Shown here: positions 1 through 64,000 of the stretch, in pieces
Layout of the letters: every line of letters starts with the position of its first letter
How positions within the stretch are numbered: position 1 is the first letter of the stretch
Assembly (NCBI GenBank): GCA_964372755.1
Contig: CAYJQX010000002.1
Coordinates: forward strand, 10,287-74,286
Direction of reading: 5' to 3'
Source of the DNA: an uncultured Candidatus Saccharibacteria bacterium
GTDB taxonomy: Bacteria > Patescibacteriota > Minisyncoccia > UBA9983
Length of the DNA stretch: 64,000 nucleotides
Translations under genes and position numbers: made by a program
Notes under the pieces: model-generated
What the model was told of the DNA's origin: nothing
The model's input: only the letters and a program-made list of their open reading frames with translations
Databases searched by the model: none

Positions 1-69
1 CGCTCAAACTCTTTCAGGCTTACTGGTTCGCCCTTCAAAAACAAAATAGCTTCACAGAGATTAGAAAGT

Positions 70-828
70 TTATCCATGATGAATGCTGAAATCCTCAAAA
101 GGAGTTTCTTGTTGTACCATCACTATACCTTGCTTAACCAATTCCAAGATAGCCAAAAAACTTACAATAATATGTGTTTTCTCTTCGTCAATAAGAGTTT
201 TATTTTTACGATGGCCGGATATTTGATGAAAGGATGAATGAATATTCTTGCTGATTCTTTCTGTGATATCCAATATTTTTTCTTCCAAACTTATCACTGT
301 TTTTACGCTTGCCTCAGGAATTTCTTCTTTTTTGGGAACGTTTACGATAATTTCTCTCATTGTGGCGGAAATATCAAAAAGAGAAATTGTTTTTTTTCTG
401 AATTCCGGCGTTCTAAACTTCACCTCGTACCCTTTGAACGGATCTTTCGGAAAAATTGGATTTTTGCCGAAAATCGTCTCTAATTTTTTTGCGATTTCTT
501 TGAACTTTACATAAAGGGCCAATCTTTCTTCAAGTTCATTTATATCTGTCTCTTCTTCTGTGGTCAGTTCTAAAGACGGCAAAAGCGCCCTGGATTTTAT
601 AAGCATCAAGGTCGATGCCACGACTATAAAATTGGCCATTTCTCCCAAGGGAAAATTTTGGATGGAGCGGACTCTTTCTAAAAATTGCCCCGCCACTTCT
701 TTTAGAGAGACCTCGTTGATAGAAAGTTTTTCTTTTTCTATCAATTCAAGCAGAAGTTCCAATGGTCCTTCAAATTTTTCTAACCGCAAATCGGTTATGG
801 AAGAATTGTGCATATGGTAAAAACCCAA
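70..828 (-). CDS. scpA: Segregation and condensation protein A (kleisin ScpA)
   Basis: The N-terminal motif LEKFEGPLELLLELIEKEKLSINEVSL is typical of ScpA. Length 252 aa. Confidence 0.75.
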   Translation of the reverse strand: MGFYHMHNSSITDLRLEKFEGPLELLLELIEKEKLSINEVSLKEVAGQFLERVRSIQNFPLGEMANFIVVASTLMLIKSRALLPSLELTTEEETDINELEERLALYVKFKEIAKKLETIFGKNPIFPKDPFKGYEVKFRTPEFRKKTISLFDISATMREIIVNVPKKEEIPEASVKTVISLEEKILDITERISKNIHSSFHQISGHRKNKTLIDEEKTHIIVSFLAILELVKQGIVMVQQETPFEDFSIHHG

Positions 829-838
829 TGAGGAATAT

Positions 839-2257
839 TTATTTCTTTTTTATTTCAATATTGAGTTCGTTTAATTGCTCTCTTGTGGCCGGACTTGGCG
901 CGTCCATCATCAAATCCCTCCCGTCACCGGTTTTGGGGAATGCCATCATTTCTCGTAAGCTTGGCTCTCCAAGCAAGGCCATAAAGAGTCTGTCTATGCC
1001 CGGAGCGATACCGCCGTGAGGAGGTACGCCGTAAGTAAAAGCGGTGAGCATGTGGCTAAATTGCGCCTTTTGGCTCTCGGAAAAGCCAATAAGATCAAAT
1101 ATTTTTTGTTGAATATCGGCTTGATGAATACGGATACTGCCACCGCCCACTTCAAAACCATTTAATATGAGATCGTGTTGAAGTCCGCGTACAGCCATCG
1201 GGTTGGAGTCTAGGAGCGAAATATCCTCGGGATGCGGAGCGGTAAACATATGGTGAGACGGCGCAAATTTGGCATTACCAGAACCATGATAATAATCTTC
1301 TTTGGACTGCTCAGTAAATAGAGGAAAATCTATCGTCCACGAAAAAGCCAGTTCGTTTAGATCGTCCTTGTTTTTTCTCAAATCCGGCTTGTCACTGCCA
1401 TATTTCTCTACTGCATCTTTATGAGAAATTCTCGGCCATGGTTTTTGAGATATTTGTTTTTCAGGGAAAAGACTCTCAACCATTTCGGTAAACATTTTTT
1501 CAATCAGTTGCATAATGTCTTCTTGGGAGACAAAACTCATTTCCATATCCAATTGAGTGAATTCACCAAAAGCTCTGTCGGCGCGGGAATCTTCATCTCG
1601 AAAGCATCTGGCGAACTGGAAGTAGCGCTCAAAACCGCCTATCATCAAAAGCTGTTTGTATTGCTGGGGCGATTGAGGCAGGGCGTAAAAATTTCCGGGA
1701 TGAAGTCGGGAGGGCACCAAAAAATCCCGCGCGCCTTCGGGAGAAGTTTTAGTGAGCATGGGCGTCTCAATTTCCACAAAACCTTCTTGGGTTAAATATT
1801 TACGGATAAACATTGCTCCCTCGTGGCGCTTTCTGATATTTTTTTGCATCCGAGGGGAGCGCAAATCCAGATAACGATATTTGAGGCGCACATCTTCCCC
1901 GATGGCTCTAGTGTCTTGATTTATTTCAAAAGGCAAAGTTTTTGCTTCCGAGAGTATTTTTAAACTTTCAATCTCCATTTCTAAATCCCCTGTGGGAGAA
2001 TCAGCGTTTATCATTTTTTCGGGTCGTTGCTTTACTGTACCGGTAATTGAAACAACCCACTCCGAGCGGAGCTTAGTTGCTTGCGCATAAACCTCGCTAT
2101 TTCCAGCATGAGTGACAGTTTGGACAATGCCAGATTTGTCGCGTATATCAAGAAAGATAAGTTTGCCGTGGTCGCGACGAACGTCCACCCAACCGGAGAT
2201 AGTTACGGCAGAGCCAATATGGTCGTGAAGAGAGGTAGCAAACACGCGTTTTTCCAT
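839..2257 (-). CDS. aspS: Aspartyl-tRNA synthetase, reduced form lacking the GAD insertion domain
   Basis: N-terminal anticodon-binding domain has RDHGKLIFLDIRDKSG. Class II motif 2 reads FERYFQFARCFRDED...EFTQLDMEMSF and motif 3 reads GGGSIRIHQ. At 472 aa it is shorter than typical bacterial AspRS. Confidence 0.85.
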   Translation of the reverse strand: MEKRVFATSLHDHIGSAVTISGWVDVRRDHGKLIFLDIRDKSGIVQTVTHAGNSEVYAQATKLRSEWVVSITGTVKQRPEKMINADSPTGDLEMEIESLKILSEAKTLPFEINQDTRAIGEDVRLKYRYLDLRSPRMQKNIRKRHEGAMFIRKYLTQEGFVEIETPMLTKTSPEGARDFLVPSRLHPGNFYALPQSPQQYKQLLMIGGFERYFQFARCFRDEDSRADRAFGEFTQLDMEMSFVSQEDIMQLIEKMFTEMVESLFPEKQISQKPWPRISHKDAVEKYGSDKPDLRKNKDDLNELAFSWTIDFPLFTEQSKEDYYHGSGNAKFAPSHHMFTAPHPEDISLLDSNPMAVRGLQHDLILNGFEVGGGSIRIHQADIQQKIFDLIGFSESQKAQFSHMLTAFTYGVPPHGGIAPGIDRLFMALLGEPSLREMMAFPKTGDGRDLMMDAPSPATREQLNELNIEIKKK

Positions 2258-2339
2258 ACGGAAATATTAGCACAAACAAGCTACATTTCCTAGAATTTTA
2301 ATGCTAACTTACCTAGTCATGGATTTGAAGCGAGAAAAG

Positions 2340-3290
2340 TTATTTTTTAAAAAACCGAGACAAAAAATTTGAAATAGTTTCTTTAATTCTTGACTGCACA
2401 TATTCAACTTTATTGCGAGTGTATGATTTTACCTCATTAATATTTTTTATGGGCTTGTCCTCGTTATTTTTTGCTGTTGAAGTGGTCAGATTTGTTTTAA
2501 TCGGTGATGTTTGTTTTGTTCCAGTAAAAATGTTTGTTATAGGTTTACTAACTGTTGAATTTTCTTTTTTAGATGGAACTTGAGGCGGTGATACAAGGAC
2601 AGGCTTATCTGCAATTTTTGGTTTTTGTCCGGAGAAATTTGTTGTGCCACCACTTCCTGAATTTTCATTTAACTGAATAATAATTGGTTTGATGTCTTGA
2701 GCCGTATTCTGAACTACGTCTGTTTTGCTTGGGGTGGTTGTAGTCTCCGGTTTTGCGGGGACGATTGGAGAAATTTTTTGCGTTCCGCCGTTTATAACAA
2801 TTTCTCCGTTTATCAGATCGGTTTTTATGGCTGTGCCAAGATTATTGCCAACTATTGACGGTCGTTCGGTAGAAAAATTAACTTTTATCGTCTTGCCATC
2901 TTTAGAAATTATTTTAAAACGCAAGGTTAAAAGCGTATCGTCTTCCTTGAATAATAATGGTTTTTGAGCGCTAGAGTCGTACCACAAAACAACTAATCCG
3001 GAAGCTGTGGAATTCATTGTGGCCGACGACAACTTCATAAACTCTAAATTTTGATATTGCAGAGCCTCGTTATCATATTCCAAATAAAGGGTCACGCTTC
3101 CCACGCTGGAATCGCCGAAATATTTTGCGTAAACGGGCAAAGTGGCAATTTCACCAAAATTACCCTTATCAGAAGCGATGGTAAGGGTGGGAATTTGTTC
3201 TCCCCTAACAGGGCTTGAGTAAGTTAGGTTAAACAAAAGAATTGATCCAACGCCAAAATAGATTATTTTTTTTGAATTTACCCTTCGCAT
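2340..3290 (-). CDS. Secreted protein with signal peptide and a Thr/Ser/Pro-rich C-terminal region
   Basis: Hydrophobic N-terminus, a low-complexity TTTPSKT... tail, no recognisable catalytic motif. Confidence 0.4.
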   Translation of the reverse strand: MRRVNSKKIIYFGVGSILLFNLTYSSPVRGEQIPTLTIASDKGNFGEIATLPVYAKYFGDSSVGSVTLYLEYDNEALQYQNLEFMKLSSATMNSTASGLVVLWYDSSAQKPLLFKEDDTLLTLRFKIISKDGKTIKVNFSTERPSIVGNNLGTAIKTDLINGEIVINGGTQKISPIVPAKPETTTTPSKTDVVQNTAQDIKPIIIQLNENSGSGGTTNFSGQKPKIADKPVLVSPPQVPSKKENSTVSKPITNIFTGTKQTSPIKTNLTTSTAKNNEDKPIKNINEVKSYTRNKVEYVQSRIKETISNFLSRFFKK

Positions 3291-3304
3291 TGTTTTAAAA
3301 CTGC

Positions 3305-6112
3305 CTAATTGTTATTCCAAGAATTGTTAACATCGCCTGTTTTCACTCCGATAAAATCTTGATTAGTTAAATCATCATTTAAATTCTCATAACGCCTTGC
3401 TTGTTCGGCATTGGTGTAATTGCTCGGGGTAAGAGTTAAATTCGAATCAAAGAATTTCCAATTACCGGCTGGGAAAAGAGTTGCGCTCCGCAATATATAC
3501 CTGACCATTGCGGTAATATCAAGGCCGACAATCGCGCCGTCGTTATCTGTATCAGCCGCTATTTTTTTGTAAATAGAATCAAAATCCTCTTTGCCCAAAA
3601 TATGGCGCACTGTTTTTACTATATCCAGTATGTTAACTTGGCTGTCGCCCCCGGACTTCTCGACCCTAACAGCGTAAGAGGCATTGCTTGGCAAGTCGTT
3701 AAATTGATAGAATCCATTTTGATCTGTTAGGACGTCTTTTAGGGCATTCCCCTGTTCATCCGTCAGAATTACTTTTGTATTTTTTATGGATTTGATTCCA
3801 TCATAATATTTGAGACGGCCGGAGATGGAATATTTCTCGACAATTGGTTCAACAACATTAAACGGTCCCCACTCTGTAAATGGCGATTCATTTCCTTGAT
3901 AATCTCGAGATGCCGTTTTTATTTTAAAACCATTTCCTTTTATGTCCTCTGAAATGTACCAAGGAAAAATTGCTTGATACGAATTGTTTATTTTAGTGCC
4001 GAGATATTGCCAAACAGATTCAAGGGCATTCCAGTACCAAAAATCAGATTCTTTTATGGCCACATTGTCGCTTCCTTCGGCGACAATATTAACCTCTCGT
4101 TGATTTTGCAACTCGTAATCTTCTTCACCGGAGATTTGGGTGAATGTGACTGTCGGCCTTATAACATCTGGTTTTAGACGGGTTAGGAGGCGGATATCAG
4201 TAGTGGTGGCGCCGATTGGCACATTGAATTTAGTGATCAAAGATTCATAGCCGGACGAGCTCACCCAGGCGGCATTTGAGCCGTTGCCCGTAGTGCTTTG
4301 GGAGATATTAAATCGGCCATCTTGATCGCTCTTGTCCCCATAACCATAAGCAAAAATACTCAAATTAGGACCAGGCTCATTGTTGACGGTTGTTTGCCCC
4401 GAAGCATAACCATTATATTTTGTCTGATCCGAGCTCATTGTAATGGTGGTATAGTCGGAAAGAAAAGTCACCGTGCCACCATCTAGAGACAACACGCCGG
4501 CTGTCACTTCATAAGTGGTATCCTCGGGAAATGAGGAAACAAAGGCGCCGTTCCAATCATTATTGATGCCAAGATAACTCCAATTAGTTGCGCCTACTGG
4601 ACGATATACGAAAACATAAAGAAGCCTTGCGGGATCGTCTTTTCGCGCCCAACGGATATTGACAGCGGGATTGCCGTTTATCTGGTATTTCTGCGCGACA
4701 TAATAAGTCGGCAGGCCGGGCAAGCCGTTTACGGAGGGAGTAAAATTAAACTCGCGTTCAATCCAGTTGTCATCATAATTTGCGTCATTGGGCTCTTCCA
4801 AATAAAACTTGATCTGCGTTGGCCCGACAAAACTCGAGGTATCAGACTGATTAAAATTAAGATTCACGCTTTGGCCTGGCGCAATAGCTCCCAATCCAAA
4901 AGTGGCCAGATTTTTTGACTCGCGCAAAAAATTATCAACAAAATGATAAAGAACGATGTTATCGGCTTGCTTGTAGCCTTTATTCATTACGGTCAAACGA
5001 AAAGTAGCTGTTTCCCTAGTTTGGGAAGCGCCGATGTTTTGCAAATCTTCAATAACAAGATTCGGTGTGGCGAAAGATTTAAGCGCTTCCGTAGTATGTA
5101 AAATAGAATTACCAAAACTTCCGTCAAAATTTCTCTGTCTTTTGATGGACGCAAGAAAGGTTTTTGCTTTAGCGCTTTCAAAATCGTAAAGATTGAAAAT
5201 ATTGACCAATCTAATGTTGGCAAACACGTCGCTAGATTCTTCTCCGACATTAAGCGCTTGTAAAATTTCATTAATTTTGCCCGACACTAAAATGGATTCA
5301 GTATCTGTTCCCGCTCTTATTTGAGAAAATGGTTTCAGTCCTTGCGCTATTTTGTAAGTTGAATAATTATTTCCAATTTCGGAGCTAATTCCTTTTAAAA
5401 CAAAGAAGAGGCTACCAGAGAAGGCGTTGCCGGAATTATAATTGCCGGCAGAGAAAGCAAGAACTGCTTCCATGGTGGTTTGCAAATCGCTTTCATGCCA
5501 AGTGTCGAATCCGATACCGCCCGAGTTATCTTGCGAGGCCTTAAGCTCATCCAGTAAGGGAGTGGCATTTTGCCCTTCGGCGATCAAAATCCTTGCCTTC
5601 AAAGCTTTTTCCCTGTTGTTTGCCGGGGCGGTGTTGAGCAGATATTGCAAAGCCGAATTAAATTGCCCGCTTTCAGTTTTGTTGTATTCAATTAATTGAA
5701 AAACCAAACCGGCAGTTGTCTCGTATTTATTAATTTCGCCAAAACTACCATCTTCGTTTTGATTTTGCGATAAATAATAAAGAATATAATCGGCCGTATT
5801 TTTTTCTATACCCGCGTAATTTGCAATCAGTGGCGTAAGTGACTCCCCGCTTAGTTGCCTATTTTGGCGAGCGGGCGCTTGTGTTTTTGATTCGAGCTCC
5901 ATTATTTGCACGGAGCTTTTTCCGTTCGTTTCCACCGAAATACTCTTTTTTACTTTCAACTTTGGTGCTGAATTTAAATCAATAACATTATCTATTTGCA
6001 TGCCTTGCTGATTTTCCTCTGCTCCGGCCGGCAAAGCTAAAACAGGGACGATTTGTGATAAAATCATTCCTACCAACACCACCCCTTTAATTTTTTTCTT
6101 GATGGCTAACAT
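3305..6112 (-). CDS. Large secreted surface protein (935 aa) with dockerin-like and carboxypeptidase-regulatory-like C-terminal modules
   Basis: Signal peptide. C-terminal DTDNDGAIVGLDITAMVRYIL is a dockerin-like Ca-binding repeat. SGRLKYYDG...VILTDEQGNALKDVLTDQNGFYQF is a Cna-B/CarbopepD_reg-like beta-sandwich. Confidence 0.5.
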   Translation of the reverse strand: MLAIKKKIKGVVLVGMILSQIVPVLALPAGAEENQQGMQIDNVIDLNSAPKLKVKKSISVETNGKSSVQIMELESKTQAPARQNRQLSGESLTPLIANYAGIEKNTADYILYYLSQNQNEDGSFGEINKYETTAGLVFQLIEYNKTESGQFNSALQYLLNTAPANNREKALKARILIAEGQNATPLLDELKASQDNSGGIGFDTWHESDLQTTMEAVLAFSAGNYNSGNAFSGSLFFVLKGISSEIGNNYSTYKIAQGLKPFSQIRAGTDTESILVSGKINEILQALNVGEESSDVFANIRLVNIFNLYDFESAKAKTFLASIKRQRNFDGSFGNSILHTTEALKSFATPNLVIEDLQNIGASQTRETATFRLTVMNKGYKQADNIVLYHFVDNFLRESKNLATFGLGAIAPGQSVNLNFNQSDTSSFVGPTQIKFYLEEPNDANYDDNWIEREFNFTPSVNGLPGLPTYYVAQKYQINGNPAVNIRWARKDDPARLLYVFVYRPVGATNWSYLGINNDWNGAFVSSFPEDTTYEVTAGVLSLDGGTVTFLSDYTTITMSSDQTKYNGYASGQTTVNNEPGPNLSIFAYGYGDKSDQDGRFNISQSTTGNGSNAAWVSSSGYESLITKFNVPIGATTTDIRLLTRLKPDVIRPTVTFTQISGEEDYELQNQREVNIVAEGSDNVAIKESDFWYWNALESVWQYLGTKINNSYQAIFPWYISEDIKGNGFKIKTASRDYQGNESPFTEWGPFNVVEPIVEKYSISGRLKYYDGIKSIKNTKVILTDEQGNALKDVLTDQNGFYQFNDLPSNASYAVRVEKSGGDSQVNILDIVKTVRHILGKEDFDSIYKKIAADTDNDGAIVGLDITAMVRYILRSATLFPAGNWKFFDSNLTLTPSNYTNAEQARRYENLNDDLTNQDFIGVKTGDVNNSWNNN

Positions 6113-15863: not shown

Positions 15864-16186
15864 ATGAAAATTAAATTGGCAATCGTTGGCGTTGGAAATT
15901 GTGCCAGCTCGTTCATCCAAGGCCTCGAATACTACAAGCACGTTGACGAAACGTGGCCATCTGTATCGGGACGGGACTCATGCACAACAACTTCGGCGGA
16001 TACATCATTCGTGATATCGGCGTGGTTGCCGCCTTTGACGTGAATGGCAACAAAATCGGCAAAGATGTATCCGAAGCGATCTGGACACTGCCGACCAACT
16101 CGCGTAAGTCCGCCGACGTTCTTCACAAGGACGTTGCGGTAAGCGCGGGGTTCCTCGGTGACGGCATCGCTCCGCACATGCGGTGA
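15864..16186 (+). pseudogene. myo-inositol-1-phosphate synthase fragment, frameshifted near codon 30 and truncated at ~107 codons
   Basis: Frame 1 gives MKIKLAIVGVGNCASSFIQGLEYYKHVDET (canonical MIPS N-terminus). The protein continues in another frame as GLMHNNFGGYIIRDIGVVAAFDVNGNKIGKDVSEAIW.... There is an AGGAG Shine-Dalgarno 8 nt upstream. The region is GC-rich relative to the flanks. Confidence 0.6.
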
Positions 16187-16335
16187 ACCTTTTCCTCTCG
16201 CTCCTCCCATCCACTCGCGACACGCGGTCCGTACGAAACTGGCATTCTCTCCGTTAGCCATTTGGCAATCGTTGTTTTACCGGCGTAGCTTACGCCTTCA
16301 AGACAAATCAAAGTATTCACGGCTCACCTCCACTT

Positions 16336-17007
16336 TTAAAGCTTGGTCGAGCAATTGGGGCCCACCGTGTCCGCCTTACCGTCTCGAATGATTACCACCG
16401 GCTCCGTACCGTATTTTGTGAACGTTCCGTCGGTAACATAACCGCCAGCTTTCTCTGGGATAGCTATAACGCGCTTCCGTAGATCGTCGGAGAGTTTCAT
16501 TACGGATTCAAGATCTTCTGCTCTGTAATGACAAAAGATTGAGTAACCATTAATGATTCTCAAACCTACGGCTTCCGTCTCGCCAAGTTGATTTGCCTCC
16601 GGTGCCGTACGAATATCCTCGCCGAGAATGATCGCTCCGGCGCTTCCTCCGTAGAGCGGAATGCCTTTCAGCGCCATCTCACGGAGATAGCCATCAAACC
16701 CGGCCGTGCGTATTTCCCGAAACAGTTTTACCATATCGCCGCCGCCGATATAGACCCCTGCGATCTCGTCAGTCGAACGACGAGGACGCAAGTCGTCCCA
16801 CATTTCAATGGCGACGACGCCAAGCGGCTCCATGACCGAGCGAAACCACTCCAGGCATGCATGGTACGGCTTTGAACGCATGGCGTTCGGGATGTAGACG
16901 AGCGGTTTTGCAAGATCGAGCAGTCTGACAAACTGCTCGTCGAGCGGTCTTGACTCTTCTGCGTTCCCGCCGCCTGCGAGAAAGATGTGGTTGGTTGCTG
17001 TGTTCAT
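16336..17007 (-). CDS. Peptidase S51 family (dipeptidase E/cyanophycinase-like) protein
   Basis: IFLAGGG...VYIGGGDMVKLF...LYGGSAGAIILG motifs. About 50% GC, versus ~36% for the surrounding genome. Confidence 0.5.
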   Translation of the reverse strand: MNTATNHIFLAGGGNAEESRPLDEQFVRLLDLAKPLVYIPNAMRSKPYHACLEWFRSVMEPLGVVAIEMWDDLRPRRSTDEIAGVYIGGGDMVKLFREIRTAGFDGYLREMALKGIPLYGGSAGAIILGEDIRTAPEANQLGETEAVGLRIINGYSIFCHYRAEDLESVMKLSDDLRKRVIAIPEKAGGYVTDGTFTKYGTEPVVIIRDGKADTVGPNCSTKL

Positions 17008-58514: not shown

Positions 58515-58702
58515 CCAATCACGGCAACCGATTGGGTGAACCGCCACCCAACGGGCGACGAGGAAGCGAAAGCCCCTAACTAGCCTCGCGCGAGCAAAAA
58601 AATGGGGCCGTCCAGCTTATTCTGTCCCGACGCAAGCTGGGCAAAGAAAGTCGGGATTTCAAAGAGGGTTTGCTGTTTATAAACACAAACCCTCTCTTTT
58701 TT
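58515..58702 (+). ncRNA. GC-rich multi-hairpin region ending in a strong intrinsic terminator (58663-58702). A candidate independent small RNA on the plus strand.
   Basis: Hairpins GGGTG/CACCC, GCGACGAGG/CCTCGCGC, CCAGCTT/AAGCTGG and TCCCGAC/GTCGGGA. Terminator AGAGGGTTTG...CAAACCCTCT plus a T6 run. No ORF. No downstream plus-strand gene. Confidence 0.35.
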
Positions 58703-59002
58703 GTCTGATAAATTTAGTGGAGACTGATGAATGACATTAGAACCTATATCTTGGAACCAGATATGTGTTCTTCCCTTAAGATCGTTCAATCGTGGTAATG
58801 GTTGAGGGACACTAGAATCCTCTCAGTGGATAGTTTACTCCCTTGGTTGGTATTTCCACCACTTTGAATAGAACCATCCTTACACCCCATTCTCCAGGAT
58901 GTTAACGAAGTTAATGATGTTCACTAACTCAATAAAAAAAAGAGGCCTGAAAAAGTGCCTATGGGGTGGCGGATACTTTTCGCGAAAAAAGCCCAGAATC
59001 TA

Positions 59003-61357
59003 CTAACCCTCAAGCTCTAAATCGCCCAACGATGCAATCATGGGGAGTAGTGTAGGTGAGATTGCCTTTGAGAAGTTAAGAATCTTTTCGTAAATCGATG
59101 AGTCGTCATTGGAAGTTGCGTGCTTCTCTTTCTTTTTCCTCTCCTCAAAATCGAGCAAAGATATACCGAGTAATACCATACCGTATTTGAAGCGAGCCTC
59201 AAGCAGTCTCGGGTCTATTTTGGTGTTTTCTTTAATTTCCATCTGGAGAAACACATTATCCATATTGATGAAGAAGTCGTAACCAGTATCTTCTCCAGCA
59301 TCAACCACTTTTAATGCGCTTTTTTCGTCGAAGTCGTACCTACTCCATTCAGTTCGTCTCACTTCTATAGCGTTAGGAATATCAAGATAGGATGGTTTTT
59401 GTCGCGTCGCACCTTTTTCCTTGCTTGGTGGTTCTTTTCGTTCTCCTTTTTTATGTCCATCAGTTTTGGTTTCTGGCTCTTCAACTTTAATACAGAATTC
59501 ACTCACAATAGCTTCTACACGAGTGTGGTCAACCACATTCGTTTGGAAGGATAAAACATCCCCAGTTTTTGTATTGCTTGGTAGTCCAACGGTTAGCGTC
59601 GCTAAACCATTCCAAAGATTAAGAGAGTAGTCTTCAATCGGTGTGCCGTTTACTGTTAGCGTGAGCTCTCCCGGTTCCTTGTCGCGATTAAAGTAGTCAT
59701 TGTTGGCATCTGTCTCATATTGTATTCGGAATTTTCTATTGATAGGGCAAGCTTTTGGCTTTTCCTTCGGGTATTCTTTTGTTGGGGTGAAGTATGTCGG
59801 GAAAGTCTTGCCTTTAAATTCTCCAAGTTCAGTAGTTCCCATCAGGTTGAATGGGTTTTTGATTCTTACACCCTGCATAAAAAGGCTGGAGAGCGAGGGA
59901 GATTTTTTGATTATGTTTTCAAGAACATCAGCTAATGGTTTTGAGTCTTGTAGTTTATTTTCAATATCCTCCCTTCGGCGTCTTTCACGGAGAGCTTTTA
60001 GACCAGGATGATTTTTAATTACATCCTCCAGTTGGCTTTCTATCTCATCTTGTAAGGGTCCTCCCGCGAGACGATCTCGGCTATTCATAAATAGTTTCTC
60101 TTGCATTCCTCGGTCCAGTCTCGTGCAGTCTACTAGGACTAAGATACTATCGGATAAATAGGACATACCCACAGCTTTTCGTTCAAAGAAACTTTTCGCT
60201 ATAGAGCCGTGCACCTGACCATTTACTGTAAAAATAACGCCTTCGTTTCGTGCGTATTTTTCCCTCTGTCCTTTCTGAAAAGCATAAATCAAAAAGTCCA
60301 TTTTCTGGCCTCTAACAGTTAGTTCTCCAGAACTCGGAAAATTCTCCTCAAGATTTTCACTTTTATCTTCATCTAGTCGTACACTCAACCCTGAAAGGAC
60401 AATATGATGTGTCGCCCCCTTATATCCCTCCCTTCTTTCAAAAAGAGTCACCGGGAGAGCAATGTTTGGCATCAATAAAGAAAGACGGTAGTACAAATCA
60501 AACTTTACATTTGTTTTTAGCCCCGTGAGTTCATACTCATATATTTTTATAAAAGTTCCGTGCTCAAGCGCCCCCTGATACATTTTAGGATAATCACCTG
60601 GTAGTAGTGGAAGAGATTGAGCAGAAAATGAAAGGACTTTACCGTTGGGGGCAAGGTATCTCAAAACAGAGCTTCGCATGCTTCCAGTAGGGGGTACTCG
60701 CTTAATAACAGTGACACCCCATTGGTCACCATTGTTTCCCATTGTAATCTTCGGGTCCCTCTTTGAAATTATTAGTTGTAAGTTATGTTCAGGACTACCA
60801 AATCTAAATATACCCGTGCCACCCATCCCGAACTTACCTTGCACAAACTGTACGCGAGCTTTATTTGATTTCGTAAGTGAAAGAAATGTGTTTGAAAAAT
60901 GGTCGGGGTTTTGTCCCTCACCTAAGTCAATGATGGAATATGAGGGGTTTACCCCATAACCTTTTCCACCTGTTGCAACTAAATATATATTTTCAGCGAG
61001 CCGAGTCCTTTCTCTAGCATCGACACTTGAAAGTTTTCCATTATAGATGCCAAAATATTTCTTTTGTGCTTCCGCAATGCTTTTGGGCGCATCAATGCTG
61101 TCTGGCTCAAAACCCTCTCTGCGGCACTCTCGCATTAGCACAGCGTCGACGGAATTGATTATCTTTTCAACCAGTGCAGAGTCAGCGCCACTCTGTTGGT
61201 TCCCACCAACAGACCAGTTTCCATCGTTATTGTCCAAATCTTTCCATGAATCTGAGTCTGCCCACAGATGAGCTTTTTCTAGAATATTAACTACCTCTTT
61301 TTCAGTCTCTGCTTTTGCAAGAGACAAGGCCAGTTTTTTTGTTTCTTCATTACTCAT
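59003..61357 (-). CDS. GHKL-superfamily (Bergerat-fold, MORC/paraMORC-like) ATPase, 784 aa
   Basis: N-box EKIINSVDA, G1 box IIDLGEGQNPD, G2 box GKFGMGGTGIF, in canonical order. The long C-terminal region is unassigned. Confidence 0.55.
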   Translation of the reverse strand: MSNEETKKLALSLAKAETEKEVVNILEKAHLWADSDSWKDLDNNDGNWSVGGNQQSGADSALVEKIINSVDAVLMRECRREGFEPDSIDAPKSIAEAQKKYFGIYNGKLSSVDARERTRLAENIYLVATGGKGYGVNPSYSIIDLGEGQNPDHFSNTFLSLTKSNKARVQFVQGKFGMGGTGIFRFGSPEHNLQLIISKRDPKITMGNNGDQWGVTVIKRVPPTGSMRSSVLRYLAPNGKVLSFSAQSLPLLPGDYPKMYQGALEHGTFIKIYEYELTGLKTNVKFDLYYRLSLLMPNIALPVTLFERREGYKGATHHIVLSGLSVRLDEDKSENLEENFPSSGELTVRGQKMDFLIYAFQKGQREKYARNEGVIFTVNGQVHGSIAKSFFERKAVGMSYLSDSILVLVDCTRLDRGMQEKLFMNSRDRLAGGPLQDEIESQLEDVIKNHPGLKALRERRRREDIENKLQDSKPLADVLENIIKKSPSLSSLFMQGVRIKNPFNLMGTTELGEFKGKTFPTYFTPTKEYPKEKPKACPINRKFRIQYETDANNDYFNRDKEPGELTLTVNGTPIEDYSLNLWNGLATLTVGLPSNTKTGDVLSFQTNVVDHTRVEAIVSEFCIKVEEPETKTDGHKKGERKEPPSKEKGATRQKPSYLDIPNAIEVRRTEWSRYDFDEKSALKVVDAGEDTGYDFFINMDNVFLQMEIKENTKIDPRLLEARFKYGMVLLGISLLDFEERKKKEKHATSNDDSSIYEKILNFSKAISPTLLPMIASLGDLELEG

Positions 61358-61575
61358 AGTTTAAAGTCGCGTCTCTTAGGGAAGTGGAACTTTGCCTTAG
61401 TGTTTTTAACAGCTCTCTCTATCTCGGAGAATATTTTGTTGATGTCTTCTTCTGTGTAGTCATAAGCACTTCGATTCGAGCAGTTGCCAAGGACTTTTAG
61501 GCGTTTTAGCACGACATTAGTCCGGAGTGTGCCTAATCTGATAAAACGGTCTCTTTTTGTCTCTTTTTCTTTCAT
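61354..61575 (-). CDS. Small hypothetical protein (73 aa), translationally coupled (ATGA overlap) to the GHKL ATPase gene
   Basis: ORF and coupling only. Confidence 0.3.
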   Translation of the reverse strand: MKEKETKRDRFIRLGTLRTNVVLKRLKVLGNCSNRSAYDYTEEDINKIFSEIERAVKNTKAKFHFPKRRDFKL

Positions 61576-61596
61576 ATTGATCTATGTATACAAGGA

Positions 61597-63537
61597 TTGA
61601 CTTATTTTTGCAAGGGTGTATCGTATTTATGTAGGGTAGCGTATACTGATGCAAAAGTAAAGTCAATAGATATGAAAATCAAAAATATCACAATAGAAAA
61701 CTACAGAAGTATTAAAGACACTGTTGTGTTGGATGTTGCGCCAATAGGTGGAAAGCAGACTTTTATGCTTCTTGGCATAAATGAGAGCGGTAAGAGCAAT
61801 ATTCTAGAAGCCATAGCGTTGCTAGATGAAGACAGAGAGTTTGACTACAGTAGAGATTGTCACTCAAAAAATGAAGATGAGAACAAAGATATCTCCGTAT
61901 CGTACGAGTTAGATATTGCTCCAGCGATAGACTTCTACAGAGAAGAGTTTTCTAAAGAAAAGATGCCCAAAAATCTTTCGGGTATCATTGATATAACTAA
62001 AATTGAACGAAAAGTATCTATAGATTCGGATGATGAAAGAAGTGATTTTTTTCATGTGTGGGTAAAAGATAAGAAAAAAGATTTTTCTAAATATGTTGTT
62101 GTCTCAGAACCAGTCACTCAAAATGGAGTCGCGAAGGAGATTAAGAAAATAGCGGAAAAAACAGCTGAAAATACCAAAACCGATACTGACGGTAACGAAA
62201 CTAATGTTCTGGACAAGGAGAAATTAGAGGAGTTTTTACAAGACGAATTTTACGATCTATTTGATAACAATGTGCCAGAAGTGATTTTTTGGAAATATGA
62301 AGACACTTACCTCATCAAAGACAAAATTAACCTTGAGGAATTTAAGAAAAAAACAAGCATATCGACTCCCTTAAAAAATTGTTTTGCTATCGCCGGTATT
62401 AAAGATGAGAATATCGAAAACAGAATCACTTCTATTATTGGAAATTCCACAAAGAAATCCAAACTAACTAAACTGCTTGGGGACAAGGTAACGGAACACA
62501 TTAATAAAATCTGGAAAGAACACAAAGTAAAGATAGAATTCGACATAGACAATATGCAACTATCTTTTCACGTTAAAGATATCGGGGATGAGTCTGAAAG
62601 TTACGGTGTAATACAAAGAAGTGATGGGTTTAAGCACTTCGTTTCAATTTTGTTGAATCTTTCGGCGGAAAATGAAACTGGCTACTTAACTAATAAGCTC
62701 ATTATTTTAGATGAGCCGGAAGTGCATTTGCACCCAAGCGGTGAGAAGTATCTTAGGGACGAGTTACTCAACATATCCAAAAAGAATCTTGTTGTCTTAG
62801 CCACTCACTCGATTTTCATTGTAGATAAGCGTTCGCTGGACAGGCACTTCAGCGTCGAGAAAACTGGAGTCGAAACTAGTGCACATCAAATTGAAAGAGA
62901 TAATCCTTTCAGAGAAGAAGTGCTTTACGAAGCGCTGGGCACATCCATCTTGGAACATGTTGAAAATAAAGTCCTTCTTTTTGAGGGAAAGACTGACAGA
63001 GATATATTTGATCTCTTCAAAAAGAAATTCAAAAAGGAAATTAAACTCCCCAACATTTCTCTAATATCAGCAGATGGTGTAGAAAATATCATTAAATATA
63101 CGAAGTTTTTTAACAACAAACTAGTTGCAGGGTTTGTTCTTGTTGATTCAGATAATGACGGTGTCGCACAGAAAACGAAAATCTTGAGTGAGGATACTTA
63201 TGACAAAAACAACACTTTTGAAATAAACGAGCTGTTGAATACCAAGAAACAATCGACTTTGGAAGATTTGTTTGATAAAAAATATTTAGTCGAATCTGTC
63301 ACTGAAGTATTTGAGGGGATGTCTATAACCCTTGATGACAGCAAACCTTACATGGAACAAATTATCCAGTTTTGTAAAGACAACGGAAAATATGTGAACA
63401 ACAAAACATACCAAGAAAAGGAGAAGGCTATGAAGAAAAGTTTCTTTCAGAAAGTCAGCAGGTTGAAAAAGGAAGATCTGCAAAAAGAAAAGTACTACAA
63501 ATTTTTTGAGCAAATACAGAAAAAATTGTCAGCGTAG
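61597..63537 (+). CDS. OLD-family ATP-dependent endonuclease (AAA_15/21 ABC-type ATPase plus C-terminal Toprim). The likely start is the internal Met at ~61672.
   Basis: Walker A LGINESGKSNILEAI. ABC signature/Walker B ILDEPEVHLHP...LVVLATHS. Toprim acidic motif LLFEGKTDRDIFDLF. Confidence 0.7.
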   Translation: MTYFCKGVSYLCRVAYTDAKVKSIDMKIKNITIENYRSIKDTVVLDVAPIGGKQTFMLLGINESGKSNILEAIALLDEDREFDYSRDCHSKNEDENKDISVSYELDIAPAIDFYREEFSKEKMPKNLSGIIDITKIERKVSIDSDDERSDFFHVWVKDKKKDFSKYVVVSEPVTQNGVAKEIKKIAEKTAENTKTDTDGNETNVLDKEKLEEFLQDEFYDLFDNNVPEVIFWKYEDTYLIKDKINLEEFKKKTSISTPLKNCFAIAGIKDENIENRITSIIGNSTKKSKLTKLLGDKVTEHINKIWKEHKVKIEFDIDNMQLSFHVKDIGDESESYGVIQRSDGFKHFVSILLNLSAENETGYLTNKLIILDEPEVHLHPSGEKYLRDELLNISKKNLVVLATHSIFIVDKRSLDRHFSVEKTGVETSAHQIERDNPFREEVLYEALGTSILEHVENKVLLFEGKTDRDIFDLFKKKFKKEIKLPNISLISADGVENIIKYTKFFNNKLVAGFVLVDSDNDGVAQKTKILSEDTYDKNNTFEINELLNTKKQSTLEDLFDKKYLVESVTEVFEGMSITLDDSKPYMEQIIQFCKDNGKYVNNKTYQEKEKAMKKSFFQKVSRLKKEDLQKEKYYKFFEQIQKKLSA

Positions 63538-63544
63538 TAGTTTA

Positions 63545-63760
63545 CTTTTCGGGGGTCAGGTAATACCATGTAAATACAACTGAATAAGTTGGATGGCCTA
63601 AACCAATAGCATTTGCTGTTGGCATGGTCTGAAATCGTAAGCCATAGAAAACCCGTCATTCAGGGCGTGGCTTACGTTATAGGGGGAAACTCCTATAGAG
63701 GCCGCAAGGCCTTCCTGGTGGCGGGTTTTGTGTATCCCACCAGGAAGTGCATTAAGTTCA
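63545..63760 (+). ncRNA. GC-rich multi-hairpin element (includes a GGCC-GCAA-GGCC GNRA hairpin and an 11-bp stem CTTCCTGGTGG/CCACCAGGAAG). Candidate cis-regulatory RNA or small ncRNA.
   Basis: Read directly. Lies between the OLD gene stop and the next plus-strand ORF start (63771). Confidence 0.25.
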
Positions 63761-63770
63761 CTTCATTCAT

Positions 63771-64000
63771 TATGAAAAAAATAATCTGGTGGGGCATAGA
63801 AGCATTTTTAGTATTTATGATAGGGGTATATTTTTTCGGGTGGTGGAAAGATATACCTGGTCTTGAATTCCTTGGGAATAAAGAGGAGCGTATGAATTGC
63901 CCGGAAGAAGTGACGGGTCTGACTACTCCTCAAACGAATAGCTCGAAGCAGTTGCAGTTAGTCGGAATTAAAATGAATCGAGTGTCGTATCCCCTCAACA
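63771..64000 (+). CDS. Membrane protein, 5' part only (runs off the window end)
   Basis: MKKIIWWGIEAFLVFMIGVYFFGWW has a hydrophobic N-terminus. No stop in this frame before the window end. Confidence 0.3.

Follow-up and report, generated by a model that had tools for sequence, protein, structure and literature searches.

Near the end of the window (the whole stretch of DNA analysed, 64 kb) lie a GHKL ATPase gene with a coupled 73-aa ORF, a divergent OLD-family gene and a structured RNA, and the locus raises the question whether these neighbours are parts of one defence system. All four features, as listed by the first-pass annotation, were found to be real. The account favoured here reads the region as three independent adjacent things: a cassette of the small ORF and the GHKL gene, an OLD gene and a LOOT RNA gene. 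The cassette would be a self-contained, horizontally mobile two-gene unit, acting as an autonomous, DNA-directed ATPase clamp module that probably serves defence or addiction. For this account as a whole, our confidence is evenly balanced. The features are as follows.

58935..59002 (-): 3' flank of the cassette, T-rich terminator-like stretch (weak call; sequence reading and blastn end-points)
59003..61357 (-): GHKL ATPase, 784 aa, core of the cassette (ORF list)
61354..61575 (-): 73-aa basic protein, upstream partner translationally coupled to the GHKL gene (ORF list; 779 homologues)
61576..61671 (no strand): divergent intergenic region of 96 bp from the small ORF to the OLD gene, with presumed promoters for both (coordinates)
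61672..63537 (+): predicted OLD-family nuclease, 621 aa, ABC-type ATPase fused to Toprim (Pfam, PADLOC, motifs)
63595..63733 (+): LOOT RNA (RF03000) including its 3' extension (Rfam match 63595-63713; consensus fold)
63772..64000 (+): first part of an ORF encoding a small protein whose N-terminus has a hydrophobic segment, leaving the window (ORF; compared with 28 other LOOT loci)

Cassette homology with loci L091 and L007 stops at about 58930-59025 (blastn); a consensus terminator scan flagged nothing at 58935-59002. A single sigma-70-like match was obtained in the divergent intergenic region (61597-61624, +). Over the locus, promoter and terminator consensus scans gave match counts no higher than in shuffled sequence.

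The Bergerat motifs reported for the 784-aa protein were found in place and in canonical order (E64-KIINSVDA, D144-LGEG, G174-KFGMGGTG and HGTF266). The key residues (E64/N68/D71, D144-x-G-x-G and G174-KFGMGG) and G267 of the HGTF266 motif are invariant in an alignment of 30 diverse family members. A match to Pfam HATPase_c_3, proposed earlier as a check, does exist, but its score remains below the curated cut-off (17.9 vs 25 bits), so HMM searches alone are insufficient to confirm the assignment. A few relatives exceed this cut-off (P0048, P0101, L098 (26.1 bits)), and no significant PADLOC or NCBIfam match was found for the family. Membership of a housekeeping GHKL family was not borne out, since Pfam and NCBIfam gave no HSP90/HtpG, MutL or gyrase match for the 784-aa protein. 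Single-sequence and profile searches of PDB sequences returned nothing meaningful for the family; an AriB match (E=0.73) was discarded as noise, as were haemagglutinin matches (E of 0.01 or more) in the PDB searches for the family and its partners.

An AF2 model of the protein (pLDDT 76.8) starts with N-terminal helices, followed by a Bergerat ATP-binding domain (~55-300) with the three-dimensional Bergerat fold and an S5/transducer-like domain (~300-430). Further along are a helical arm (434-494), an Ig-like beta-sandwich (~520-626), a disordered linker rich in K and E (631-660) and, at the C-terminus, an alpha/beta unit that carries a long helical hairpin (663-779). MORC3 was among the best structural matches. 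Judged by its model, the protein is a true GHKL ATPase, structurally of the MORC/MutL/Hsp90 type, with a predicted GHKL+S5 module. No nuclease fold was found in the model, and neither the model nor its fold matches contained a Toprim or 5Y-CAP domain. A C-terminal DUF4263 PD-(D/E)xK nuclease domain and a MutL C-terminal dimerisation/endonuclease domain are likewise absent from the protein. The C-terminal domain modelled alone (pLDDT 85) had no nuclease-like or other significant structural neighbour that would point to an effector activity.

The TGA of the 73-aa ORF overlaps the ATG of the GHKL gene in the tetranucleotide ATGA, as read directly from the sequence and as previously annotated. The encoded protein is basic (pI 10.2, net charge about +10), and in the alignment of its family F11, R18, N34, Y38, Y40, F63 and an LGNC motif are conserved. 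Wherever it is found, the small ORF lies immediately upstream of the GHKL gene and is always co-oriented with it, also in unrelated backgrounds. By a profile-HMM tally, it is present in 14/17 loci of the window's clade (GHKL protein at least 55% identical to that of the window) and in 24/74 GHKL loci overall. The coupling suggested by the overlap is thus matched by tight and wide co-conservation. As many as 32/74 loci have no recognised partner at all, so the GHKL family as a whole does not require the small protein. Searches of Pfam, NCBIfam and PADLOC with the 73-aa protein gave no meaningful match; closest were PADLOC NDT_II-A, matched partially over a short stretch (E=0.005), and an NCBIfam model (E=0.057) whose cut-off lay about 350 bits higher. 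Best matches among PDB sequences were coiled-coil noise (E>=0.012). At some loci the GHKL gene has an alternative partner of ~340 aa. Homology of the two partners was considered and rejected (hhalign probability 0.1%), and single-sequence and profile searches with the ~340-aa partner found nothing meaningful among PDB sequences. A search for fusions of the small protein to the GHKL protein (Rosetta-stone) found none; the N-terminal extensions of longer GHKL members are without any small-protein motif.

The divergent gene had been taken for an OLD-family ATPase/Toprim gene, and this identification holds. Pfam matches were obtained to AAA_15 (2.3e-19), AAA_21 (1.5e-13) and OLD-like_TOPRIM (3.5e-9), and Walker A (GINESGKS, residue 35), Walker B (IILDEP, residue 344) and both Toprim motifs (EGKTD, residue 438; DSDNDG, residue 492) are present. 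The listed ORF spans 61597-63537 (+) with a TTG at 61597, which is probably not the start of the gene. Homologues down to ~77% identity are 621-622 aa long with the same Pfam set (family range 589-641 aa), and the ATG at 61672 is therefore favoured as the most likely true start (621 aa). The best PADLOC model was 'Old' (4.3e-31), and the PADLOC ATPase models of GajA and AriA were matched at 7.9e-18 and 1.8e-23, respectively; no PDB sequence matched at E<=0.01. As had been noted, neither a GajB nor a DUF4435/AriB partner adjoins the gene in the window. It has no adjacent helicase gene there, and no UvrD-type helicase was found in the contexts of four orthologues. Two of these contexts do have other helicases nearby: in L095/L096 a helicase gene of R-M type (ResIII/SWI2-SNF2) stops 2 bp short of the OLD gene, and in L095 an SNF2 gene lies 2.4 kb downstream of it. 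By sequence, the gene encodes a single-gene, P2-Old-like (class 1 type) predicted ATP-dependent Toprim nuclease. OLD-family nucleases are a known kind of anti-phage gene.

Whether OLD is the missing nuclease effector of one new defence system that also includes the GHKL ATPase and its 73-aa partner was judged by genomic context. Such a system would suit a GHKL protein that has no nuclease of its own, and the trio does form a block of 4.86 kb with 85% nucleotide identity common to the window and loci L087-L090, the homology ending at most 17 bp from the OLD stop codon and ~300 bp beyond the GHKL stop codon. At L091 (GHKL 84% identical), another AAA_15/AAA_21 ATPase of OLD-like size adjoins the pair. 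This ATPase, however, is ~30% identical to OLD over the ABC motifs, is without a Pfam Toprim match, and sits on the other side of the pair in opposite orientation. Co-conservation of the trio, which had been put forward as a check, was observed in the window's own lineage (GHKL 94% identical) but not elsewhere: in 80 GHKL loci from as many species, OLD homologues are absent to a distance of 6 kb, and the single configuration earlier described as unreported is not upheld. Conversely, OLD orthologues at 88, 70, 59 and 52% identity have no GHKL neighbour and lie in other defence islands of differing content (Type III R-M and GmrSD; MmeI-like R-M and a reverse transcriptase; HinfI R-M; transporter genes). 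At L007 and L091, cassette and LOOT are direct neighbours; in the window, OLD occupies precisely the place between the two, as expected of a later insertion. Insertion of OLD beside the cassette in the window's lineage is the best explanation of this arrangement. The OLD module is independent of the GHKL cassette, and the one-system reading is largely refuted by the context survey and has become very improbable. That two defence-like genes stand side by side in one genome was here no evidence of a system.

The RNA was described earlier as a GC-rich multi-hairpin element of the locus. That it is a structured RNA was confirmed, but it is a member of the known independent family LOOT (RF03000; Rfam match 63595-63713 (+), 82.6 bits vs a gathering score of 46.4, model positions 1-121 of 121) and not part of the locus. 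It might alternatively serve the cassette as a non-coding RNA, much as retron or type III toxin-antitoxin RNAs serve their systems, so that LOOT, small ORF and GHKL gene were ancestrally one unit. At L007 and L091 (GHKL 80% and 84% identical), LOOT is found divergent, 140-175 bp upstream of the small ORF, in the window OLD alone separates the two, and the flanks beyond LOOT are without detectable DNA homology. Against this, the Rfam model detected no LOOT in 13 further small-ORF + GHKL loci or in L001, L005 and L087-L090, a custom covariance model found none in ~100 loci beyond the window, L007 and L091, and 0/26 independent metagenome copies of LOOT have a GHKL or small-ORF homologue nearby. 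A consistent tie exists instead to the ORF on the opposite, 3' side of LOOT, as seen by comparison with 28 other LOOT loci. A role within the cassette is thus extremely improbable; LOOT is a host-backbone RNA gene and belongs to neither protein module.

With OLD and LOOT set apart, the cassette is widespread and unnamed; no named system matching the GHKL family was found in the literature. Clustering of the family at 90% identity gives at least 3,865 clusters, and clustering at 50% gives 2,301. It occurs patchily in at least 511 of 185,579 GTDB species of Bacteria and Archaea at 43-80% identity, a spread that indicates horizontal transfer. Among CPR bacteria and DPANN archaea, with their very small genomes, the cassette is common, and its genomic position varies among loci. 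Among viral sequences, the family was found in 0/50,697 phage records and in 6 of 2.9 million IMG/VR contigs. Mean column identity across phyla is 65% (alignment), which is unusually high for an immune gene.

Partners of the GHKL gene come in several versions, namely the small basic protein, the ~340-aa RHH/winged-helix-like protein and a DNA methyltransferase, and distant relatives lie beside phosphorothioation genes. In sister clades, the same full-length GHKL protein forms tight conserved pairs with N6/N4 DNA methyltransferases. An N6_N4 methyltransferase directly adjoins the GHKL gene in 12/80 loci (14/80 within 2.5 kb), mostly in convergent orientation with a median gap of 55 bp. Methyltransferases also adjoin haloarchaeal relatives. 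Distant relatives are found in methylase-helicase-nuclease operons as well, and relatives at ~30% identity adjoin the SspBCD phosphorothioation genes (SspB 1.5e-112, SspD 1.9e-116). Such R-M neighbours (methylase, helicase, nuclease) were found in sister and distant clades; in the window's clade, the sole conserved neighbour is the 73-aa gene, and no DNA methyltransferase that might act in trans was found in the 64-kb window. Neighbours in the window's clade are mostly housekeeping genes with few defence-like ones, so defence-island enrichment is not demonstrated for the window-type cassette. The earlier description as a defence locus stays plausible for the cassette, but lacks support for the trio as a unit. 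Because its relatives pair with DNA-modification genes, the cassette can reasonably be put forward as a candidate for a new defence module directed at DNA.

GHKL+S5 ATPase modules (Hsp90, MutL, MORC, type II topoisomerase) work as dimers whose N-terminal domains close on ATP. By analogy, the GHKL protein may be a homodimer held at its C-terminus, with N-termini closing on ATP as an ATP-driven clamp. The methyltransferase and Ssp context of relatives suggests that its substrate would be DNA and that unmarked DNA would be harmed. In the window's clade, which is without a modification gene, the small basic partner would take the controlling role, whether by binding DNA as an adaptor or sensor or by restraining the ATPase in the manner of an antitoxin. 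The cassette might then trap, compact or otherwise disable incoming DNA, possibly by recruiting a host nuclease, and so serve defence or addiction. A more specific version is put forward tentatively, as possible and well short of probable: a nuclease-free immune or silencing module, in which ATP binding makes a MORC-like dimeric clamp entrap incoming DNA topologically or compact it, the small partner guides or restrains the clamp, and sister clades mark self by methylation or phosphorothioation.

Two readings dispense with an antiviral role. The cassette may be a toxin-antitoxin-like addiction module or selfish element, in which the small protein neutralises a toxic GHKL protein and stabilises the carrier DNA. 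Its layout is classical for type II toxin-antitoxin modules (small basic upstream gene, ATGA overlap, large downstream gene), it is seen as an isolated two-gene insertion among housekeeping genes, often near tRNA, tmRNA or rRNA genes or recombinases, and in several loci a VapBC pair directly precedes the GHKL gene. The loci without recognised partner are however unexpected if the GHKL protein were lethal without an antitoxin, and the methyltransferase and Ssp links of relatives suggest discrimination of modified from unmodified DNA, as in restriction. Addiction alone is therefore considered doubtful; addiction and defence roles are not mutually exclusive. Alternatively, the GHKL protein could be a housekeeping or stress protein (Hsp90-like chaperone or MutL-like repair factor) that works with a small co-factor outside genetic conflict. 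This is improbable, given the missing matches to Hsp90/HtpG, MutL and gyrase (even with a profile among PDB sequences), the patchy distribution across Bacteria and Archaea, which points to transfer and not to vertical descent, the varying genomic positions, and the links of relatives to methyltransferases, Ssp genes and R-M operons.

Among known systems, prokaryotic MORC/paraMORC GHKL ATPases belong to restriction-modification operons (Iyer, Abhiman and Aravind 2008, PMC2292703). The window protein resembles them in the order of its domains (GHKL with intact ATP motifs, then S5/transducer, then a C-terminal extension particular to the family), in the sporadic, laterally mobile occurrence of its family across Bacteria and Archaea, and in the DNA methylases, helicases and nucleases that adjoin its relatives. 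It differs in staying below the HATPase_c_3 threshold, in a clade without helicase, nuclease or methylase, and in its 73-aa basic partner, which is described for no paraMORC family (compared by published description). GHKL-Shedu (paraMORC3/VcSduA), with a proven anti-phage role (PMC12137116), shares the N-terminal GHKL ATPase, a clamp-like middle domain, stand-alone occurrence and comparable length; the window protein is without the C-terminal DUF4263 PD-(D/E)xK nuclease domain of Shedu type I-D. From Hsp90/HtpG, the family is set apart by lack of sequence membership and by a patchy instead of a near-universal vertical distribution, and from the type IIB topoisomerase B subunit and Topo VIII by the lack of Toprim and 5Y-CAP and by its conserved neighbour, the 73-aa protein.

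Relatives at ~30% identity adjoin SspB, SspC and SspD at the position expected of a restriction partner such as SspE or SspFGH (PMC8092258). SspF is described with a Walker A motif and SspH as FtsK-like, neither as GHKL (PMC8092258). Three genes that adjoin SspBCD in Ensifer and Devosia were considered as a possible SspFGH, but this was rejected, as these published features misfit and PADLOC and NCBIfam showed no match to an Ssp restriction protein. The window cassette differs in having no ssp genes nearby and low identity to the Ssp-linked relatives. The neighbouring OLD gene shares with P2 Old and class 1 OLD proteins the ABC-type ATPase fused to Toprim, the catalytic E and DxD motifs, the single-gene state without helicase partner and the best PADLOC model; to solved OLD proteins it is only distantly related in sequence, and it stems from a genome of Patescibacteria type and is known here from sequence. 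It resembles Gabija and PARIS through its matches to the GajA and AriA ATPase models, but differs from Gabija in having no UvrD-like GajB and from PARIS in that Toprim is fused within the 621-aa protein, with no separate AriB/DUF4435 gene; unlike in both, its neighbours are the GHKL cassette and LOOT. With type II toxin-antitoxin modules, the cassette shares the gene layout.

To our knowledge, almost no MORC-type GHKL ATPases have been tested, and the one tested type carries its own nuclease. Their membership in restriction-like systems was predicted in 2008 (PMC2292703). The present family stands out as large, strongly conserved, without recognisable nuclease and with interchangeable partner versions. 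If the cassette is a defence system, it adds a compact and mechanistically distinct module and offers a way to learn by experiment how bacterial MORC-like clamps act on DNA. Its relevance would be particularly high for Patescibacteria, for which we know of few defences. Should the silencing reading be true, the cassette would be a prokaryotic counterpart, and possibly an antecedent, of eukaryotic MORC-mediated silencing, and as a means of defence it would fit the very small genomes of CPR and DPANN organisms well.

For the LOOT gene, the OD1/Patescibacteria type of the organism fits what we take to be the distribution of the motif. The window RNA is a full-length member without difference in membership (LOOT motif, RF03000; Weinberg et al. 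2017, PMC5737381). The ORF at 63772 begins 59 nt past the end of the Rfam match. In the copies studied here, a 3' extension of ~20 nt (TCCTGGTGGCGGGTTTTGTGT) beyond the Rfam model is conserved and closes a long helix in the consensus fold.

The locus very probably comprises two independent protein modules beside a host RNA gene. The following features were identified, in window coordinates:

59003-61357, minus strand: GHKL ATPase ORF, 784 aa (ORF call)
61354-61575, minus strand: small ORF, 73 aa (ORF call; the stop codon overlaps the GHKL start in ATGA, read directly)
61597-63537, plus strand: OLD ORF as called, divergent from the cassette formed by the small ORF and the GHKL gene
63595-63713, plus strand: LOOT RNA (RF03000), full-length (Rfam covariance match of 82.6 bits; gathering score 46.4)

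The 784-aa ORF, the 73-aa ORF with its ATGA overlap and the divergent ORF described in the first-pass annotation were all present, and the Bergerat motifs (E64-KIINSVDA, D144-LGEG, G174-KFGMGGTG, HGTF266) were located where it had placed them. Its assignment of the divergent gene to the OLD family was borne out by Pfam (AAA_15 2.3e-19, AAA_21 1.5e-13, OLD-like_TOPRIM 3.5e-9), by PADLOC, where 'Old' was the top model (4.3e-31) and AriA and GajA ranked behind, and by Walker A (GINESGKS), Walker B (IILDEP) and Toprim (EGKTD and DSDNDG) motifs. The gene thus encodes an OLD-family nuclease of predicted activity. Since close homologues (down to ~77% identity) are 621–622 aa long, the gene most likely begins at the ATG at 61672. 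OLD was the only one of the three proteins recognised by the HMM libraries. The 784-aa protein gave a sub-threshold Pfam match to HATPase_c_3 (17.9 bits against a cut-off of 25) and no match in the PADLOC or NCBIfam model libraries; the 73-aa protein had no Pfam match, and what it matched in PADLOC (E = 0.005) and NCBIfam (E = 0.057) was weak and below threshold. Separately, positions 16001–17000 form a 1-kb bin with a GC content of 0.54 compared to ~0.39 elsewhere in the window, in which no Rfam family and no tRNA was detected.

The GHKL and OLD genes had been proposed to form a new joint configuration. This was not upheld, as no OLD homologue was found within 6 kb of the GHKL gene in any of the best 80 GTDB loci, and OLD and cassette co-occurred only in the immediate lineage of the window. 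Contigs with a 94%-identical GHKL protein share a 4.86-kb block (window 58696–63554) at 85% nucleotide identity, with differing flanks. On three unrelated long contigs, a 72–76-aa ORF lies directly 5' of the GHKL gene and no OLD gene is present. Conversely, the cassette was absent from the loci of OLD orthologues at 88, 70, 59 and 52% identity, which were found after a Type III R-M pair beside GmrSD, after an MmeI-like enzyme beside a reverse transcriptase, near a HinfI R-M system and among transporter genes. At L091, a comparison locus with an 84%-identical GHKL protein, a different, OLD-sized AAA_15 ATPase is located on the other side of the cassette; its ~30% identity to the window OLD is confined to the ABC motifs, and no Toprim match was given by Pfam. 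This pattern is one of co-location in defence or mobile islands, not of a conserved operon.

Tight same-strand R-M neighbours were observed at three OLD orthologue loci (L095 1969–7866, L096 1754–7651 and L093 3269–7848). Here, the OLD orthologue starts 2 bp past Type III-like Mod and Res (ResIII/SWI2-SNF2) genes, or 14 bp past an MmeI-like R-M fusion, and with distances this short, class 1-type OLD genes seem to be coupled to R-M systems at the level of the operon. The L091 cassette itself (3–5509) looks like part of an integrative element, with a large serine recombinase (Resolvase, Recombinase and zinc ribbon), a primase-like gene with a DnaG-type zinc ribbon and DUF4177 to one side, and the OLD-sized ATPase, within the same element, to the other.

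The GHKL protein is a member of a large, highly conserved family without a name. A word-indexed search (E≤1e-3) retrieved at least 3,865 clusters at 90% identity, the best 120 of which are all ~785 aa long, 55–94% identical over their full length and, where annotated at all, labelled 'hypothetical'. When 1.84 billion representatives were scanned exhaustively with HMMER, 2,301 clusters at 50% identity were obtained, of which 732 scored below 1e-30. In GTDB, with one genome per species, at least 511 loci encode a relative at 43–80% identity, in hosts including Patescibacteria, Hydrogenedentota, Bacteroidota, Planctomycetota, Chloroflexota, Bacillota, methanogens, and Micrarchaeota and Nanobdellati archaea. 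Conservation across domains together with this patchy distribution indicates horizontal transfer. The family was found in none of 50,697 phage records, in 6 of 2.9 million IMG/VR contigs (several at contig ends) and in 8 of 72,556 plasmids, all distant relatives. In an alignment of 30 sequences the mean column identity was 65% and ATP-site residues were invariant. The literature search retrieved no paper naming the cassette family.

An AlphaFold2 model was built from the family alignment (mean pLDDT 76.8). It shows, in order, N-terminal helices, the Bergerat domain, an S5/transducer-like domain, a helical arm (434–494), a beta-sandwich (~520–626), a disordered K/E-rich linker (631–660) and a C-terminal alpha/beta unit that includes a pair of long helices. 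Nothing recognisable as a catalytic effector domain was seen. From this domain set, a dimeric GHKL clamp architecture is deduced. By analogy with Hsp90 and MutL, the long, hydrophobic and nearly invariant C-terminal helices are likely a constitutive dimer interface.

Upstream partners were tallied by profile HMM at 74 loci with enough upstream sequence. The small partner was present at 24 (2 of these also with a methyltransferase), and an unrelated partner of ~340–430 aa occupied the same abutting position at 12, 6 of them with a methyltransferase. Six further loci had a methyltransferase and no recognised partner, and 32 had neither. Within the clade of the window (GHKL ≥55% identical), the small partner was found at 14/17 loci. 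The larger protein is conserved and was observed in place of the small ORF upstream of the GHKL gene at L036, L037, L056, L064, L024, L032, L034, L044, L071, L073, L079 and L085, in methanogens, Bacteroidota, Acidobacteriota and Planctomycetota. Its N-terminus is RHH-like (MKILVEV..NFILIAxENQI), its C-terminus gives a weak winged-helix match, and no family assignment was found for it. Homology between the two partners was ruled out (hhalign probability 0.1%). The small-protein family has 779 members with conserved residues F11, R18, N34, Y38, Y40 and F63 and an LGNC motif, and the window protein is strongly basic (pI 10.2). Because the genes around window-type cassettes are mainly of the housekeeping kind, a few being defence-like, and none recurs as a third member, the small ORF and GHKL gene are regarded as a self-contained cassette.

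As a third recurrent type of upstream neighbour, a co-oriented PIN-domain-like ORF (VapC-like by sequence) was observed 6–82 bp upstream of the GHKL gene at six loci from different phyla (L017, L031, L038, L052, L070, L082), four of which have an AbrB-type antitoxin-like ORF a further ~430 bp upstream. Small-ORF cassettes were also often located a few hundred bases to ~2.7 kb from tRNA, tmRNA or 5S/23S rRNA genes (L018 5417–5498, L026 5529–5610, L012 715–824, L087 4586–5057, L089 896–1367, L022 3735–4075, L009 10013–12932), as expected if the cassette rides elements that integrate beside structural RNA genes.

At 12/80 loci an N6_N4 DNA methyltransferase adjoins a full-length GHKL relative, mostly convergently and separated from it by a median of 55 bp. 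This methyltransferase-paired clade (43–46% identity) occurs in Acidobacteriota, Planctomycetota and Chloroflexota, often with the ~340-aa partner upstream. On plasmids, genuine SspB (1.5e-112) and SspD (1.9e-116) genes adjoin relatives of ~30% identity, a Hymenobacter relative neighbours SIR2, DUF262 and a PAPS-reductase-family gene, and haloarchaeal relatives are either divergent from a site-specific methyltransferase or part of a C5-methylase/GHKL/helicase/PLD-nuclease operon. The same kinds of context were given for MORC and paraMORC ATPases by Iyer et al. (PMC2292703). Such modification contexts imply a DNA-directed activity that needs to be kept off self DNA. In the clade of the window no methyltransferase adjoins the cassette, and none was found anywhere in the 64-kb window. 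Beside SspB, SspC and SspD on an Ensifer adhaerens plasmid (pC; L097 1333–8421) and a Devosia neptuniae plasmid (L099 5974–13017), a trio was observed of a ~805-aa distant GHKL relative, an uncharacterised 635–680-aa protein and a ~780-aa paraMORC-HEF_HK 'sensor histidine kinase'. None of the three matches SspE or the published SspFGH, and the trio may be a phosphorothioate-linked restriction module of undescribed type.

Both OLD and LOOT belong to kinds already known. The cassette is a distinct family among MORC/paraMORC-like GHKL ATPases of conflict systems, and is new in lacking both a PADLOC/NCBIfam model and a nuclease and in having an undescribed small partner. An intact ATP site, a modelled GHKL and S5 fold, mobility, non-viral origin, strict coupling to the small basic protein in the clade of the window and the link of relatives to DNA modification were taken as established. 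The GHKL protein would act on DNA as a homodimeric ATP-driven clamp harmful to unmarked DNA, and the small partner could either bind DNA as an adaptor or sensor or act as a brake in the manner of an antitoxin; the outcome would be defence against incoming DNA, or addiction. For the cassette, defence by a DNA clamp is put forward tentatively, at slightly below even chances; the organisation of the locus combined with this reading is the best overall explanation, and was judged about evenly balanced. The GHKL family is worth testing for a specialist, with no mechanistic surprise so far.

The 'GC-rich multi-hairpin element' of the first-pass annotation is indeed a structured RNA, but a known one, the full-length LOOT, and a host gene. 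At L007 and L091, which have no OLD gene, LOOT is located just upstream of the small ORF and divergent from it; in the window OLD lies exactly between the two. This comparison supports insertion of OLD between two pre-existing neighbours. A covariance model from three LOOT copies found no further copy in ~100 loci, and the curated Rfam model none in 13 more small-ORF cassette loci nor in L001, L005 and L087–L090. Of 26 independent LOOT copies taken from metagenomes by pattern scan, none had a GHKL or small-ORF homologue nearby. LOOT as a cassette component was rejected on these scans and the reverse survey; its adjacency to the cassette is lineage-specific, since each is missing at other loci of the other.

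In ~24/29 LOOT loci (by eye; window 63595–63800, L007 778–1000, L091 5334–5556 and L100–L125), a co-oriented ORF follows ~50–60 nt past the Rfam 3' end at near-fixed distance. These ORFs are unrelated in sequence, nearly all with a hydrophobic TM-like or signal-like start, and LOOT seems closer to a cis-acting 5' leader of membrane/secreted-protein genes than to the free sRNA of its Rfam label. The conserved RNA runs ~20 nt past the Rfam model (window 63713–63733 and 25 other loci; LOOT alignment A8). In this extension, the nearly invariant TCCTGGTGGCGGGYTTTGTGT pairs with the upstream invariant AAAACCCGYCA-TCAGG, closing a multi-branched structure. Two base pairs of the closing helix show compensatory changes (UG to GU in 2 sequences, CG to UA in 3), and the helix ends in a U-rich, terminator- or attenuator-like tail.
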